Below, in pieces: positions 29,868-54,275 of a stretch of DNA of 64,000 bases. The stretch is from an uncultured bacterium (lineage in GTDB: Bacteria > Patescibacteriota > Kazan-3B-28). The notes beneath the pieces were generated by a model, which worked only from the letters and a program-made list of their open reading frames with translations, was not told where the DNA came from and made no database searches. Positions within the stretch are counted from its first letter, which is position 1, and every line of letters begins with the position of its first letter. The translations under genes and the position numbers were made by a program. Location: contig OY968788.1 of NCBI GenBank assembly GCA_963695435.1, positions 413,456 through 477,455 of the forward strand. Direction: 5' to 3'.

Positions 29868-30110
29868 CTCCTACCCCCTGCCATAGGAGGAGGGCTGTAC
29901 TGAATTGAGATAAATTGCCGTCGCGGGGGCATGTTTGAACCCGATAGCTATCGGGTGAGTTTGCCCTTTAAGCGGTAAGGTAATTTATCCAATGAATAAG
30001 CCTGACGACGTGGGCAAGCGGTTTCCGTCGCTTTGACAAGACAAAGCGACAATCGGTCGAGCGCGATTCGGCGCTCGGAAAAAATAACATAAAAAAATGG
30101 CCTTTCGGCC
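29868..30110. repeat. About 250-nt structured intergenic element, copy 1 of 3 (candidate ncRNA or MITE).
   Basis: Shares a 5' block with the other two copies (ccataggaggagggctg versus ccattggaggagggatg). With the copy at 38269 it shares a near-identical core (gcatgtttgaacccgatagctatcgggtgagtttgcc) and a series of hairpins with compensatory substitutions. Confidence 0.6.
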
Positions 30111-30151
30111 TAGATGCTTCGCTCCGCTCGAGCATGACAAAAGAAAATTCC

Positions 30152-30472
30152 CTAGCGGATGCTACTGCCAAGATTCACAATCCAACTCGCCAACGCAGTA
30201 TTATTAACCAACCAATCCAATCCAAATAATAATCCAATCATCACTATCATAAGGATGACGACGAATACTAGGTCGCGGCGGATTACTTTGTAATGCTCGG
30301 GTGTACCGATTGCCATTGTGAACGTCGAACGTTCTCCAGCAGAAGCGATGGGAGTAGCTGAAACGGCTGTACCAGAAATCACCGGTGCTCCGATTGGAGC
30401 AACGGGTTGATTTTGATGGAGTGCGGCAACTTTTTGGAGTTCGCGCAAACGTTTGTTGAGGTTTTTGGACAT
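30152..30472 (-). CDS. Hypothetical small protein with C-terminal TM segment.
   Basis: ORF only, no recognisable domain. Confidence 0.35.
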   Translation of the reverse strand: MSKNLNKRLRELQKVAALHQNQPVAPIGAPVISGTAVSATPIASAGERSTFTMAIGTPEHYKVIRRDLVFVVILMIVMIGLLFGLDWLVNNTALASWIVNLGSSIR

Positions 30473-30547
30473 AAGAATAAGGATGATCCGTAATCCCCAA
30501 CTTGATTGGGGAACTAAACAGAAACAAAAACATTTTCTGTTCTTGTT

Positions 30548-30574
30548 TGGATTCCCGCCTACGCGGGAATGACA
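30548..30574. repeat. Family-2 hairpin repeat.
   Basis: ggattcccgc-cta-cgcgggaatgacaa. Confidence 0.7.
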
Positions 30575-30612
30575 ATTATCTAATTAATAAGGTGTGTCAT
30601 CTTCGGCTTGCA

Positions 30613-30732
30613 ATTCCCGCGACGACCTACTTTGGCAGGACCTTGCGGTCCAACTATCATCGGCGCTGGGGAGCTTAACTTCTCTGTTCGGGATGGGAAG
30701 AGGTGTTGCCTCCCCGCTATCATCACGAGAAT
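30613..30732 (-). rRNA. rrf: 5S ribosomal RNA.
   Basis: Reverse complement contains CCGAAC...AGAAGTTAAGC...AGCGCCGATGATAGT at canonical 5S positions. Helix I pairs ATTCTCGTGA with TCGCGGGAAT. About 120 nt. Confidence 0.85.
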
Positions 30733-30779
30733 TCCAAGCCCAAGAGAAACTTGGGTCATCAATTCAATTTACCAATGTG

Positions 30780-31070
30780 TTATTTCTTACTGAAGAATGT
30801 ACGAATCTTTTTCACATCTTCATACGAATCTATCATCAGCACCAGCATTTCAGCGCTGGCTAACCACATAATTGTCAGAATAAATGTCACCAGCAATACA
30901 ACGAATCCGGTAACAATTGGCGAATGCAAAACGAGTGGCATATGCAACTGCATAATCCAAGTGTTATTGATAAATGAAGCGGCGGCCAAGACAATTCCAA
31001 AAATGAAAGTCAGCCAGCCGAGGCCAATAAACACATAGATCATTGCACGAAGCATTTTGAATTGATTCAT
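30780..31070 (-). CDS. ORF for a hydrophobic 96-aa protein inside the 23S-5S spacer. May be spurious.
   Basis: Three predicted TM helices, no Shine-Dalgarno. Sits within the rRNA operon on the same strand. Confidence 0.2.
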   Translation of the reverse strand: MNQFKMLRAMIYVFIGLGWLTFIFGIVLAAASFINNTWIMQLHMPLVLHSPIVTGFVVLLVTFILTIMWLASAEMLVLMIDSYEDVKKIRTFFSKK

Positions 31071-31477
31071 AACATCAATGAAGTTATTTTTACTTATTTA
31101 GCATAAGCCAAAACAACCAATTTTTCCAATGGTTTCCTTAGATCACCGATCTAAGATAAAGCACTAAACTACAAAAGCGAAAAAGCGATTGGCCTATTAG
31201 TACAACTCGGCTGAACGTATTACTACGCTTACACCTGTTGCCTATCAACCAAGTGGTCTACTTGGGGCCTTGCGTCCTTACGGACATGGAAATTGATTTT
31301 GAAGTATGCTTCGCGCTTAGATGCTTTCAGCGCTTATCATTTCCATACGTAGCTACTCGACAATGCTCTTGGTAGAACAGCCGATACACCAGCGGTATGT
31401 TCACTGAGGTCCTCTCGTACTATCAGCGACTCTCCTCAAATTTCCTCCATCCACAGCAGATAGAGACCGAACTGTCT

Positions 31478-32236
31478 CACGCATGATTGTCCATTATTAC
31501 TAATGGCATAGACTATATCTTCATCCTTTCTGCCCACCGGCAGAGGAGGAGGTGGCGTGTGATAGCGATGATTAACTTTGCGCTATCTCATCAACCCATT
31601 TTGCTTTTAATGAATTGAATCAGTCGTTACGGGGAACGAGTTTATGTTCTTGCAGAAATTGTTTGACCGTTGCTTGTGTGGTCGTGCGTTTCTTGGAGTA
31701 ATTATACTTTGCGGTTTCGTCCACAAGCTTTGCTCTTTTAAGCAATTCTTGGGGCGAGATTCTTTCGTACGAAGAGCCAATTCCTAGCAAACATAAAGCA
31801 ATAACTTTTTGCGCTAGGACTTGTTTCAGCCGTAAATACGGAAGCAACTTGGTTAAAACTTCGTAGACCGGCTGATACCCGACAATCGTGTATTCAGCCA
31901 TATGGTCATTACGAATACGAACATACCCATACTTCAGTTGGCTTTTTAGCCATTCGAGAAAGTCTTTTCTTTCTTCTTTTTGATAAAAGACAATACTAAC
32001 TCGAATCTGATAACCATAGATATATCCGCTACGTTTCACTAGTTGCGCCATAATGCAACCATCTCCGTCTAAGAATCCCGCAATGTAAGCAAGTAATTTT
32101 TCTGCCATAATCTCGATCTTCCCTCGGAATTGCCCTCTTTTCGTTCGGTAAGAGAAAAGTAGGGTTTCTCCGATACAGCCACGTTTATTGTACCGCATTT
32201 CTGCGGTAGAACGCAATGTGATTTACGTTCTGAACC
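31478..32236 (-). mobile_element. Group I intron 1 in 23S (domain V, between GACCGAACTGTCTCACG and ACGTTCTGAACCCAGC) carrying a LAGLIDADG gene.
   Basis: Exon sequence is continuous across the insertion when compared with the 23S consensus. Contains a group-I S-like element (aagatatagtct in RNA sense) and the shared cagtcgttacgggg block. Confidence 0.75.
31620..32216 (-). CDS. LAGLIDADG homing endonuclease (intron-encoded).
   Basis: [19 protein letters not shown] motif, about 200-aa single-motif family. Embedded in 23S intron 1. Confidence 0.8.
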
Positions 32237-32318
32237 CAGCTCGCGTGCCACTTTAATCGGCGAACAGCCGAACCCTTGGAACCTGCTCCAGCTCCAGGAT
32301 GTGACGGGCCGACATCGT

Positions 32319-32608
32319 ACATAATTCCATAGTTTCATATGGTGTAGACTATATCTTCATCCTATCGCAAACCTTAGGTCTAATGGCCATAGTCTTGCTT
32401 TAATGTGATAGGAGGCGGCGTATTACCCTATTTTTGATAATAGAGTTTCCTCTTTCGAGTCAGTCGTTACGGGGTTAATTTTTGCATAGCAAAAATAACT
32501 TCCCACGGTATTGCCCTTCATCTTTTTTGTATACCACTGATGAGTAGGGTTTCACCGTTATAAGCCGCATTTTTGGTATGAGATTGCTCTCATAGCACCC
32601 CAATGTAT
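32319..32608 (-). mobile_element. Group I intron 2 in 23S (between GACATCG and AGGTGCCAAAC). No ORF.
   Basis: About 290-nt insertion. Shares agactatatcttcatc and cagtcgttacgggg blocks with introns 1 and 3. Confidence 0.65.
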
Positions 32609-53076: not shown

Positions 53077-53118
53077 CAAGAAAAACAACTCTGTAATAGA
53101 GTTGTTTTTGTATGTTGG

Positions 53119-53271
53119 GTTGACCCCGTAGAGAATTTTGGAGTGTTTTAGTTATTCAATATGCCGGTAGTTAAAAGCAATAATACGCATTAATATCTTT
53201 TGACCCTATCAGCTTACCCAGCTCCACTAAAACAAGGAGGCGGATTCTCCAAAATCTTCTACGGGGTTGAC
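53119..53271. mobile_element. MITE-like element (family 3) just downstream of tRNA-Asp.
   Basis: 25-bp TIRs gttgaccccgtagagaattttggag / ctccaaaatcttctacggggttgac. Confidence 0.7.
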
Positions 53272-53349
53272 TAATCAGATTCGAGAGACTAAACTCGCGG
53301 AGGTTGGTCTTAACTAACCACCTCTCAATCCCATCTTTGGAGGTGCGGT

Positions 53350-53661
53350 ATGAAATTGCACTTTTTCGGATTTATCAGGCTTGCGGCGATACGTTTTCTT
53401 TTTCCCAAGCATAAGGAAACTCCCGAGGATAGTCTTGCAAGTTATGTACTGTTCGTTGATAGCACCTTAACAGAGGTGCAAACAGAATGTCTTGAAGCTG
53501 ATTCTGGTTTAGTTGAGCTCAAAGAAAAGCTCAATAGCCAATTTGGCGCTTGCCGAAACAGAGAGGTGGCAGAAACTTTGGTCCGATACTGTTTGTCCAA
53601 GTCTGATCTACCTCCATCAATCCAGAACCTCGTTGCAGAGCGCTTGAAAGCACAGGCCTGA
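53350..53661 (+). CDS. Hypothetical protein (103 aa).
   Basis: Strong SD ggaggtgcggtATG. No recognised domain. Confidence 0.4.
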   Translation: MKLHFFGFIRLAAIRFLFPKHKETPEDSLASYVLFVDSTLTEVQTECLEADSGLVELKEKLNSQFGACRNREVAETLVRYCLSKSDLPPSIQNLVAERLKAQA

Positions 53662-53743
53662 AAATTCGTATAATTAGTGCCGCCCTGTTTCCAGCAGGGT
53701 GGCACTTACCATATCTATCGTATAATTAGACCTGTTAGAATCT

Positions 53744-53817
53744 GCGAGTGTGGTTCAGTGGCAGAACGCGACCTTCCCAAGGTTGAGACGGGAGTTCGAT
53801 TCTCCTCACTCGCTCCA
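53744..53817 (+). tRNA. tRNA-Gly (anticodon CCC) with encoded CCA.
   Basis: Acceptor GCGAGTG/CACTCGC, anticodon loop TTCCCAA, T-loop TTCGATT. Followed by terminator hairpin at 53827..53851. Confidence 0.8.
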
Positions 53818-53826
53818 GAAACAAAG

Positions 53827-53851
53827 AAATCGGATTTACTCCGATTTTTTT
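53827..53851 (+). terminator. Rho-independent terminator after tRNA-Gly.
   Basis: aatcggatttactccgatt followed by TTTTTTTG. Confidence 0.7.
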
Positions 53852-53928
53852 GTTTGGGTGAGAGAGAATTGAGCTCTGCGAAGCATGAGTTCGCGCACGA
53901 GACCACTTTATAAATTTGTTGTCTTCTA

Positions 53929-53997
53929 TTAGGTGGCGAGTGAAGGGCCCCCACAGCCAGTGGGGAAAATCTTCTACCTCACTCGCTCCAGAAAACA
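53929..53997 (+). pseudogene. Truncated tRNA-Gly remnant: acceptor halves retained (gcgagtg...cactcgctcca), core replaced.
   Basis: 18-nt direct repeat of the tRNA-Gly 3' end (cctcactcgctccagaaa) at 53804 and 53978. Confidence 0.5.
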
Positions 53998-54019
53998 TAA
54001 CCCCCTATCCATTCTTCTA

Positions 54020-54275
54020 TCCGCCATTGGAGGAGGGATGTTTTTGTCTTTTACCCCATCGAGCAAATTGCGTTATCCAATTAGAAAATCAGCCGGTATG
54101 GATAGCGTTGTTTGAGCGTAGCGAGTATAGCGTATAGTCCAGAAAGGTCTGATTTTCTATTTTGGATAGCAATTTGTGAGTGGGGAGCGACTTTGGTTAC
54201 TTTCCTCAAGCGGAAAGTAACAATCGCTGAAGCGCGATTCGGCGCTTCAAAACAAAAAAGAAAAGAAAAAAGGGT
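54020..54275. repeat. About 250-nt structured intergenic element, copy 3 of 3 (most diverged).
   Basis: Shares the 5' block ccgccattggaggagggatgt and two hairpins with compensatory changes (gaagcgcgattcggcgcttc versus cgagcgcgattcggcgctcg). Confidence 0.5.

Follow-up and report, generated by a model that had tools for sequence, protein, structure and literature searches.

The three copies found in the window (the whole 64-kb stretch of DNA that was analysed) belong, in the reading that we moderately favour, to a family of mobile elements that carry no genes and are non-autonomous, the strand-specific fold of which is under selection, probably as RNA. Searched over its full length by a covariance model without filters, the window yielded exactly three copies, all on the + strand, in agreement with the first-pass annotation, which had recognised three copies with a common 5' block. 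That block, CCATTGGAGGAGGGATGT, recurs exactly at 38281-38298 and 54024-54041 and with 2 mismatches at 29881-29898 (3 matches against 0.02 expected by chance), and the near-identical core reported for copies 1 and 2, GGCATGTTTGAACCCGAT..., is indeed common to those two only. The locations first assigned to the copies were right, but the extents slightly short; the units span approximately 29862-30151, 38265-38531 and 53991-54295, the family measuring about 270-300 nt as inserted. All three fold far better than shuffled sequences (z-scores of -5.3, -6.3 and -8.3 for copies 1, 2 and 3), and the compensatory hairpins originally quoted correspond to P5 and P6, present in every copy. The order of modules is a short pyrimidine tract, a 5' unit of 19-21 nt, a long rod of type A or B, the hairpins P5 and P6 and an A-rich tract, after which a REP-like terminal hairpin usually closes the element. 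REP-like hairpins of this GTCAT-plus-palindrome kind are also abundant elsewhere in the genomes that bear the element.

Copy 1 (29862-30151, + strand, score 160 bits) is of type A and runs from pyrimidine tract to terminal hairpins through 5' unit, rod, P5, P6 and A-rich tract, its end abutting the stop codon (30152-30154) of an opposite-strand gene of 106 aa. The 5' unit GCCATAGGAGGAGGGCTGT (29880-29898) provides one strand of P1 and of the tandem-G.A helix, while the rod (29899-30016) carries a kink-turn-like motif (ACU bulge, GA), the long stem P3, P4, a second GA motif and an apical hairpin, with AAGCCTGACGACGTGGGCA as returning strand; P5 lies at 30027-30050 and P6 at 30058-30077. The remainder (30078-30151), as read from the sequence, comprises the A-rich tract, the small hairpin GGCCTTTCGGCC and a REP-like hairpin (30113-30138) with ATGAC as its last bases, and on the - strand this tail forms a hairpin and then a T-run, 3' of the 106-aa gene. 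Copy 2 (38265-38531, + strand, R1 score 227 bits), also of type A, is flanked by the terminator of a 47-aa ORF (38236-38259) and by the stop codon (38532-38534) of a convergent 148-aa gene. Its 5' unit (38278-38298) consists of the P1 strand CCGCCA, a UU bulge and GGAGGAGGGAUGU, and its rod (38299-38416) of kink-turn-like motif 1 (AUU bulge 38299-38301, GA 38302-03, opposite GA 38395-96), P3 (38304-38318 with 38379-38394), P4 (38328-31 with 38362-65), GA motif 2 (38332-38 with 38357-61), the apical hairpin (38339-38356) and the returning strand AAUCCCGACGACUGGCGG (38398-38416). P5 (38425-38450) and P6 (38457-38477) are followed by the A-rich tract and the terminal REP-like hairpin GGATTCCAGCCTTCGCTGGAATGAC (38500-38524), together at 38478-38531; homology with L021, L019 and L024 extends through that hairpin, and on the - strand the tail presents the 148-aa gene with a terminator-like hairpin (38521-38502) and a T-run.

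Copy 3 (53991-54295, + strand, R1 score 40 bits with filters off) is of type B, having the 5' unit and 3' hairpins of copies 1 and 2 around a different central rod. Its 5' unit GCCATTGGAGGAGGGATGT (54023-54041), followed by a pyrimidine spacer (54042-54053), is without partner strand within the copy; rod B (54054-54185), in which CCCCATCGAGCAAATTGCG... is paired with ...GCAATTTGTGAGTGGGG, is also present in L009, L018 and L079. The 3' part contains P5 (54195-54221), P6 (54229-54248), an A-rich tract (54249-54274) and a terminal hairpin (54276-54293). The duplicated tRNA-Gly 3' end noticed earlier in front of this copy is real (18 nt, 53804-53821 being identical to 53977-53994), but it is part of a second, separate insertion (53818-53990) and not of the element.

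The fold of the element is under selection, as the initial annotation had proposed, because it is covarying among about 55 relatives, retrieved from CPR genomes (about 20, by a 19-mer scan) and metagenomes (36 further copies). In structural alignments fitted to the proposed fold model, whereby pair counts are somewhat inflated, 91.9% of cells are paired in 20 genome copies and 92.2% in 33 distinct metagenome copies (about 40% in slid controls); 39 and 45 of the 51 pairs, respectively, have changed on both sides, and the covariation scores are 0.51 (0.05-0.08 with partners slid) and 0.53 (0.05-0.07). Overall, the element takes the shape of a rod that contains tandem G.A pairs and a textbook kink-turn signature and has two hairpins at its 3' side. 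The helix formed in type A by the 5' unit and the 3' strand AAUCCCGACGACUGGCGG combines Watson-Crick pairs with two tandem G.A pairs; beyond it come a kink-turn-like motif, a 15-bp stem, the second GA motif and an apical hairpin that varies between copies; in diverged copies a tandem GA has moved by 3 bp with the helix length kept. The signature GU-NNN-GA / GA-AY occurs in 38 of 50 copies, its bulge variable and its flanks covarying. At the level of sequence pattern, the element resembles kink-turn RNAs (box C/D sRNAs, T-box and SAM-I stems, L7Ae ligands) in its C-stem, 3-nt bulge, tandem G.A/A.G and covarying non-canonical stem.

The fold belongs specifically to the window's + strand, which folds on average 10.7 kcal/mol better than its complement and does so in 23 of 23 copies. 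Within helices, GU and UG pairs outnumber AC and CA by 61 to 24, and overall GA and AG outnumber CU and UC by 96 to 6; of 33 metagenome copies, 27 have G.U at one pair beside the kink-turn bulge, and mutation bias could be part of the cause of the G.U excess. Orientation is equally one-sided: between co-directional genes the element is antisense in 25 cases and sense in 0, with an opposite-strand gene preceding it in 20 of 21 genome cases and in most metagenome cases. The genes flanking the copies are housekeeping ones, for example trmD, uvrB and rpsP. The kink-turn signature in the sequence and the many G.U and G.A pairs suggest that the fold acts as RNA. Against transcription of the + strand, position-specific counts give no conserved -10 or -35 signal upstream of the element and no + strand terminator-like site follows the window copies; the favoured strand, antisense to the neighbours, is also the one least likely to be reached by read-through transcription.

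In evolutionary terms, the copies are insertions, gained at new sites: for copies 2 and 3 the closest relative shows the site empty, and these two empty sites, the only ones found, both come from one related population. The site of copy 2 is empty in L081 and L080 (88% amino acid identity), where 60 nt separate the two genes, and L076 and L079 are also without the element there; that of copy 3 is empty in L084, where it reads CCA|caat|taaaagacacc, copy 3 having entered immediately behind the tRNA-Gly CCA end. The left junctions follow ...GGGATTTTAATTT in copy 2 and ...CGCTCCA in copy 3. Kazan GW2011_GWA1_50_15 (L079) has the element at 13187-13380, a position without it in the window, and a second copy that shares the placement of copy 1, behind the orthologue of the 106-aa gene, but belongs to type B; 3' of this orthologue, both L026 and L079 carry subtypes other than that of copy 1. 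The copies land in the few bases that separate a hairpin (terminator or tRNA end) from the neighbour's stop codon or flank, and the insertion of copy 2 supplied the hairpin and T-run that now lie 3' of the neighbour's stop codon. The element is small, non-coding, multi-copy and insertion-polymorphic. No target-site duplication, the sign once named, together with lack of expression, as refuting the first-pass reading, is visible between filled and empty sites of copies 2 and 3; no terminal inverted repeats or complementarity between the ends were seen on inspection, and the ends are unlike, with pyrimidine tract and 5' unit on one side, A-rich tract and hairpin on the other. We consider the element non-autonomous because, with the exception of one RNase H-like ORF, Pfam gave no sign of a transposase or reverse transcriptase among the 50 larger ORFs of the window, where HUH, Nop and IscB/TnpB proteins were not found either; no protein that might mobilise it came to light anywhere in the analysis.

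The strongest of the competing explanations, unlikely in our estimation, is that the fold works as single-stranded DNA, in a PATE-like derivative of HUH elements (IS200/IS605 or IS91 type) or an attC-like recombination site, with a transposase or recombinase recognising the strand by its bulges and mismatches, and the resemblance to RNA motifs incidental. Such a role is conceivable because tandem G.A pairs are stable in DNA too, and it would accommodate the two defined junctions without terminal inverted repeats or target-site duplication, the hairpins at both ends (the 5' one, of pyrimidine tract and unit, predicted by folding, the 3' terminal one seen), the strand-specific structure with its 25-to-0 polarity, the absence of a promoter, and the REP-like hairpins common in the host genomes and ending the element. 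It is countered by the GU-NNN-GA / GA-AY pattern, which is the consensus of RNA kink-turns, and by the left end, for which upstream counts give no target motif and the two junctions share none (TTTT-aattt vs CTCCA). If the neighbour genes are co-oriented with replication, the structured strand would be the leading-strand template, contrary to the expectation for IS200/IS605 insertion. Nor was any Y1/HUH transposase (TnpA) or TnpB/IscB found in the scanned window ORFs or among the Pfam annotations of the syntenic loci retrieved. Protein-less IS200/IS605 derivatives with omega-RNAs that are mobilised in trans, the PATEs, are nonetheless documented, and with the HEARO/IscB omega-RNA (RF02033) they share with our element a multi-copy, gene-less, strand-polar nature, a strong structure with covariation, mobility without inverted repeats or duplicated targets and a presumed mobilisation or use in trans (PMC10055086). 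The element is PATE-like also in its hairpins near both ends, but unlike PATEs it has no conserved 4-5-nt target motif abutting the left end, and unlike both groups it has no Rfam match and none of their proteins nearby, while having kink-turn-like motifs, tandem G.A helices and arrays of orphan 5' units. A true integron attC site was rejected: no conserved RYYYAAC/GTTRRRY (the R''/R' core sites) was read at the ends, the flanking genes are housekeeping and the window contains no integrase.

Still more doubtful is the view that the copies are ordinary trans-acting or housekeeping ncRNA genes, multiplied by duplication and recombination, their presence/absence differences being deletions. The very strong covariation with conserved internal loops, the presence of the family in several CPR lineages, the one or two copies in each Kazan genome stretch examined, and the L008 copy with a hairpin and U-run after it, on the copy's strand, all fit this view, which must then explain why three related genomes, at graded distance, lack an element at the site of copy 2, why element positions vary between relatives, and why orphan 5' fragments and chimeric copies exist. 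Copy number is also high, with assemblies breaking at the element (many copies lie at contig ends, and one short-read contig breaks inside copy 2). A free-standing sRNA gene, moreover, is disfavoured, as no conserved promoter was found, no terminator on the RNA strand follows the window copies and the strict antisense polarity is unexpected for such genes. Of the earlier alternative, an ncRNA family or a hairpin-rich MITE, what survives is the selected structure, the RNA-like motifs and the mobility; the ordinary sRNA gene fits poorly, and the classical MITE falls, with no terminal inverted repeats or target-site duplication seen.

Least probable is that the complement is the working strand, cotranscribed with the neighbour and acting, in the manner of REP/BIME or ERIC, from the 3'-UTR or between cistrons to terminate or stabilise the mRNA upstream: the preceding opposite-strand gene, the hairpin plus T-run that opens the element on that strand and the replacement, by copy 2's own, of the old terminator to which the neighbour had access would suit it, but the complement folds worse in every copy, its internal loops would become U.C/C.U mismatches and the conserved G.U pair C.A, a leading hairpin that terminated would leave the body untranscribed, and a terminator has no need of about 200 nt of covarying rod.

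The fold matches no described RNA or transposon family; the Rfam searches suggested at the outset, at gathering threshold and by E-value, gave no match for any copy, HEARO included. The nearest kinds are PATE/HEARO-type elements and ERIC/BOX repeats, the element being a structured interspersed repeat. Like ERIC/IRU, BOX, Correia-type repeats and REP/REPIN, it is an intergenic, modular, imperfect palindrome enriched at gene 3' ends and mobilised in trans or by a route not established, and its terminal hairpin is itself REP-like; unlike them, it is longer, has conserved asymmetric motifs with covariation across phylum-level lineages, and is of strict single polarity and confined to CPR. Correia elements carry terminal inverted repeats, which our element does not. 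Group IIC introns have their sites just past terminator motifs or other inverted repeats (PMC1702495), and copy 2 similarly lies a few bases past a terminator hairpin and T-run, in the terminator's orientation, as copy 3 lies directly past a tRNA end; but the element is only about 300 nt long, matches no group II intron family of Rfam and, in each of the 25 co-directional contexts, runs antisense to the terminated gene, the reverse of the sense placement of IIC introns, and this identity was rejected. Nop-domain RNA-guided systems occur in CPR bacteria (PMC12045711); in contrast to their guide RNAs (TIGR, IS110 bridge RNA), a closed helix rather than guide loops lies between the GA motifs, and there are neither 36-nt arrays nor a neighbouring tas or IS110 gene. 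A TIGR array or box C/D guide was likewise rejected, the spacing being 26-68 nt instead of regular 36-nt dual-spacer units (cf. PMC12045711) and the window having no Nop-domain protein.

That spacing refers to the orphan 5' units, which accumulate upstream of many full copies. Each locus has one to three of them, ending just past the GU that precedes the kink-turn bulge and separated by pyrimidine-rich spacers, mostly at 30-46 nt. At one locus the body varies among relatives, while an identical 19-nt 5' unit is found in two of them and a diverged unit-like stretch in the third. Returning to the mobile element that we favour, incoming copies may preferentially land on, or recombine at, the 5' unit, and the fold may be a scaffold recognised by trans-encoded machinery that copies or moves the element, by analogy with protein-less IS200/IS605 derivatives with omega-RNAs or with HEARO RNAs. 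Members of the family occur in candidate division Kazan and in neighbouring CPR/Patescibacteria lineages, with no copies turning up in viral, phage and plasmid collections. For these CPR bacteria it might, quite speculatively, represent an RNA-level mobile or RNA-guided system. If it were a SINE-like retroposon, a reverse transcriptase encoded in trans would copy its RNA, and the orphan 5' units would be the products of copying that broke off at the foot of the long stem; as an orphan guide or scaffold RNA, like omega-RNA or bridge RNA, it would have its kink-turns bound by a putative protein that directs insertion beside hairpins.

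The three similar stretches singled out in the first-pass annotation are present as it claimed, and direct reading of the sequence bears out their shared 5' block, core and hairpins. The 18-mer CCATTGGAGGAGGGATGT of the 5' block occurs exactly at 38281 and 54024 and with two mismatches at 29881, without any other match in 64 kb (chance expectation 0.02 matches); the core GGCATGTTTGAACCCGAT... is common to copies 1 and 2, and two 3' hairpins, whose stems vary by paired changes, are found in all three copies. Compared with shuffled sequence, all three copies have a far more stable fold (z-scores -5.3, -6.3 and -8.3), and with filters off the covariance model R1, built for the element family, detects exactly these three in the window, all on the + strand. 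The window also carries small housekeeping genes and, on the - strand, a 23S rRNA region (30614-35868) whose two group I introns are at 33172-33460 and 32326-32620, followed by a 5S gene beyond a 1.4-kb gap that contains a LAGLIDADG ORF (31620-32216); since no 16S gene lies upstream of the 23S, the rRNA genes are unlinked. A small, free-standing GIY-YIG nuclease ORF (9981-10289) lies immediately upstream of miaA.

In copy 2, on the + strand, a pyrimidine tract (38268-38277) precedes the 5' unit (38278-38298), formed by the P1 strand CCGCCA, a UU bulge and GGAGGAGGGAUGU, the partner strand of which is AAUCCCGACGACUGGCGG (38398-38416). Their helix runs G:C, GA:GA, G:C, GA:GA, GGGAU:AUCCC, a bulged A and GU:AC, past which a three-base bulge and a GA facing GA give the sequence signature of a kink-turn. 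Above this motif the rod comprises a stem of 15 bp, a short helix, GGCA:UGCC, and a second conserved loop (UGUUUGA / GAGUU); its tip is an apical hairpin distinct in almost every subfamily. On the 3' side, a U-rich linker leads to P5 and P6, and the A-rich tract behind them to a terminal hairpin with an ATGAC end. Type B elements (copy 3 and the fetched loci L009, L018 and L079) retain the 5' unit, pyrimidine spacer, P5 and P6, while having a rod different from that of type A and a 5' unit without partner strand. GGAGGAGGG is ruled out as a Shine-Dalgarno or ribosome-binding site, being the strand of a covarying helix that faces CCCGACGAC. The upstream pyrimidine tract is able to pair with GGAGGAGGG and resembles the internal guide sequence of group I introns; a group I intron was itself rejected, with neither a P7 or P3-P8 core nor an Rfam match, and so were small ORFs or a type I toxin, as ORFs spanning the element are not conserved. 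Copies 1 and 2 end in the same type of REP-like hairpin, and free-standing hairpins of this kind (GTCAT then a palindrome, in two sequence variants) are found apart from the element at 30550-30575 (+), 12145-12170 (-) and 12180-12200 of the window, at L079 19340-19430 and, as an inverted pair exactly at the window's copy 2 site, in one distant relative (L076 10430-10540). They create spurious ORFs such as MSFPRRRESK... (30204-30575).

Covariation had been taken to indicate selection on structure, and this is now borne out in 20 genome and 33 distinct metagenome copies. In alignments that are fitted to the proposed structure and hence biased in its favour, the genome set (n = 20) has 91.9% of cells paired, changes on both sides in 39 of 51 pairs and a covariation score of 0.51, against 35-45% and 0.05-0.08 in slid controls; the metagenome set (n = 33) has 92.2%, 45 of 51 and 0.53, against 33-48% and 0.05-0.07. 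The low slid controls and the independence of the second set speak for a genuine signal, which is as strong as in well-established structured RNAs. Diverged copies have GGAGCCCGAAU/AAUGAGGGCGAC in place of GGAGGAGGGAU/AUCCCGACGAC, so that one tandem GA is shifted by three pairs while helix length is kept, and in their P1 GCCA/UGGC becomes GGCA/UGCC. The strand of the element (E, + in the window) has the more stable fold in all 23 copies compared, with a mean advantage of 10.7 kcal/mol over its complement. Within helices, G.U outnumbers A.C by 61 to 24. Overall, mismatches are purine-purine in 96 cases versus pyrimidine-pyrimidine in 6; of 33 metagenome copies, 27 have G.U at one pair next to the kink-turn bulge. 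The pattern GU-NNN-GA / GA-AY, present in 38 of 50 copies with a freely variable bulge and covarying flanks, has at the sequence level the appearance of an RNA kink-turn. This pattern, the fold asymmetry and the G.U/G.A bias make E the selected strand, in all likelihood in the form of RNA. Since tandem G.A pairs are stable in DNA as well, the fold could instead serve as a single-stranded-DNA substrate, which we consider unlikely.

How, then, did copies of such a structured sequence come to lie where they do? They are insertions, polymorphic between close relatives. At copy 2, the flanking proteins share 69% and 58% identity with their counterparts in two candidate division Kazan genomes, with common gene order, which places the source among Kazan-group CPR bacteria. 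In the closest relative (L081/L080, 88% protein identity), 60 nt separate a 47-aa ORF from a 148-aa gene, corresponding to one bidirectional terminator plus five bases; in the window, this terminator is followed by 267 added bases (38265-38531) and these by the stop codon. Two further, more distant relatives are also element-free at this site. The copy 3 site is empty in the relative L084, where tRNA-Gly-CCA is followed by caat and taaaagacacc; in the window, 478 bases separate CCA from caac-taaaagacacc, namely a 173-nt piece duplicating the tRNA end and the element itself (53991-54295). The element was inserted before the 173-nt piece, because the duplicated stretch takes in four bases beyond CCA. 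The tRNA-Gly duplication reported by the first-pass annotation is real, covering 18 nt (53804-53821 equals 53977-53994). The ~173-nt insertion (53818-53994), right after tRNA-Gly(ccc) and missing in L084, has an 82% similar homologue next to tRNA-Met in L015 (2349-2484), there duplicating the tRNA-Met end; on sequence reading it holds an apparent reverse-complemented tRNA 3' half, and it looks like a second mini-element targeting tRNA 3' ends. Nearby, a block with a bPH-domain protein, a 175-aa protein and tRNA-Asp (50443-53076) is inverted and rearranged with respect to L084 (3776-5692), with breakpoints close to tRNA genes. At the copy 1 locus, the element lies downstream of an orthologous small membrane-protein gene (window 30152-30472) in the window (29862-30151), in L026 (32-405) and in Kazan GW2011_GWA1_50_15 (L079, 19839-20043), with different bodies: the window has type A, L026 a type B 5' fragment together with a further type A, and L079 type B. 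The 19-nt 5' unit is identical in the window and L026; in L079 there is just a diverged sequence resembling it. Genes beyond the element differ between the window and L026, and one called gene in L079 overlaps the 5S rRNA. Neither target-site duplication nor terminal inverted repeats were seen at the defined junctions. An ordinary family of ncRNA genes would equally present a selected fold; faced with insertion polymorphism, and with neither a conserved promoter upstream of the element (by consensus scan or position-specific counts) nor a + strand terminator after the window copies, it appears less likely still.

The copies obey a strict polarity. Among genome copies with a scorable downstream neighbour, 20 of 21 adjoin a gene on the opposite strand at its 3' end, as do most metagenome copies. 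Of the copies flanked by co-directional genes, all 25 are antisense to them and none is sense; another 14 have convergent neighbours and six have divergent ones (three of the six represent a single locus). Same-strand clusters occur, with three copies in 3 kb (L006) and four in 6.3 kb (L065). The few same-strand downstream genes are the housekeeping rpsF and YceD-like genes, for which an associated-ORF idea was rejected. Elements ~180-235 nt upstream of rpsF (ribosomal protein S6) on the same strand, among the rare ones without an opposite-strand gene downstream, are at L034 904-1097, L045 3233-3430 and L060 1397-1590, apparently variants of one locus, and at a separate locus, L074 2970-3164. 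On the neighbour's strand the element starts with the terminal hairpin and a T-run, which at copy 2 now stand 3' of the neighbour's stop codon, replacing the old shared terminator. A 3'-UTR or terminator module working on the other strand would match this arrangement; with folding and pairing biases that favour E, we judge it the least probable of the alternatives.

One to three extra 5' units precede at least 15 full copies, cut right after the GU preceding the kink-turn bulge, followed by 7-20 pyrimidine-rich bases and often from another subfamily than the adjoining copy. Simple nesting does not by itself account for them, the rest of a resident copy being absent downstream save for one 3' fragment, which at L010 takes the place of orphan units. 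The 5' unit thus behaves as a place where bodies may be exchanged or new copies may arrive. The idea that complementarity between flank and stem guides insertion was rejected, as the single 8-mer coincidence seen for copy 2 did not recur at copy 3.

Searching 185,579 species genomes for the 19-mer GCCATWGGAGGAGGGMTGT turned up 26 stretches, with true relatives in 19. These belong without exception to CPR assemblies, namely Kazan, UBA10110 and MAGs with a Saccharibacteria label; in one MAG the copy number reaches at least eight, and many of these copies lie where contigs end. R1 added five more diverged copies without the 19-mer in the loci so retrieved, and 36 on metagenome contigs from sediment and groundwater. 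The viral contigs, phages and plasmids searched held no copies, and such an origin was rejected, two chance 19-mer matches failing the covariance model. The family is widespread and absent from Rfam 15, the recommended Rfam check having returned no match to any window copy at gathering or E-value thresholds. Among the 50 larger window ORFs, Pfam revealed no transposase or reverse transcriptase, one RNase H-like ORF apart, nor any gene for an integrase or for an HUH, Nop or IscB/TnpB protein; these are likewise absent from the Pfam labels of the syntenic loci that were fetched.

The earlier alternative of ncRNA family or MITE proves half right on each side: the element is mobile and non-autonomous, with a strand-specific, RNA-like fold under strong selection, but on defining tests it falls outside classical MITEs, as well as known omega-RNA/HEARO families, group IIC introns, attC sites and TIGR arrays. 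TIGR-Tas and IS110 bridge RNA were rejected for their different published architecture. The nearest known kinds are ERIC/BOX-type structured repeats and protein-less IS200/IS605 derivatives carrying structured RNAs (PMC10055086). Overall, we lean towards a non-autonomous mobile element with a selected strand-specific fold, probably acting as RNA.

The family combines recognisable tertiary motifs with a strict polarity rule and with insertions that vary among close relatives. To our knowledge, little is known of non-coding RNA or mobile DNA in CPR bacteria, whose genomes are small, those of the Kazan bacteria considered here measuring about 0.6 Mb. The covariance model is immediately usable for annotating these repeats, which break short-read assemblies, and the element is a marker of strain-level variation. 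It also offers a concrete lead to the mobilisation machinery of organisms that do not grow in culture on their own, and possibly to a new kink-turn RNA-protein pair.
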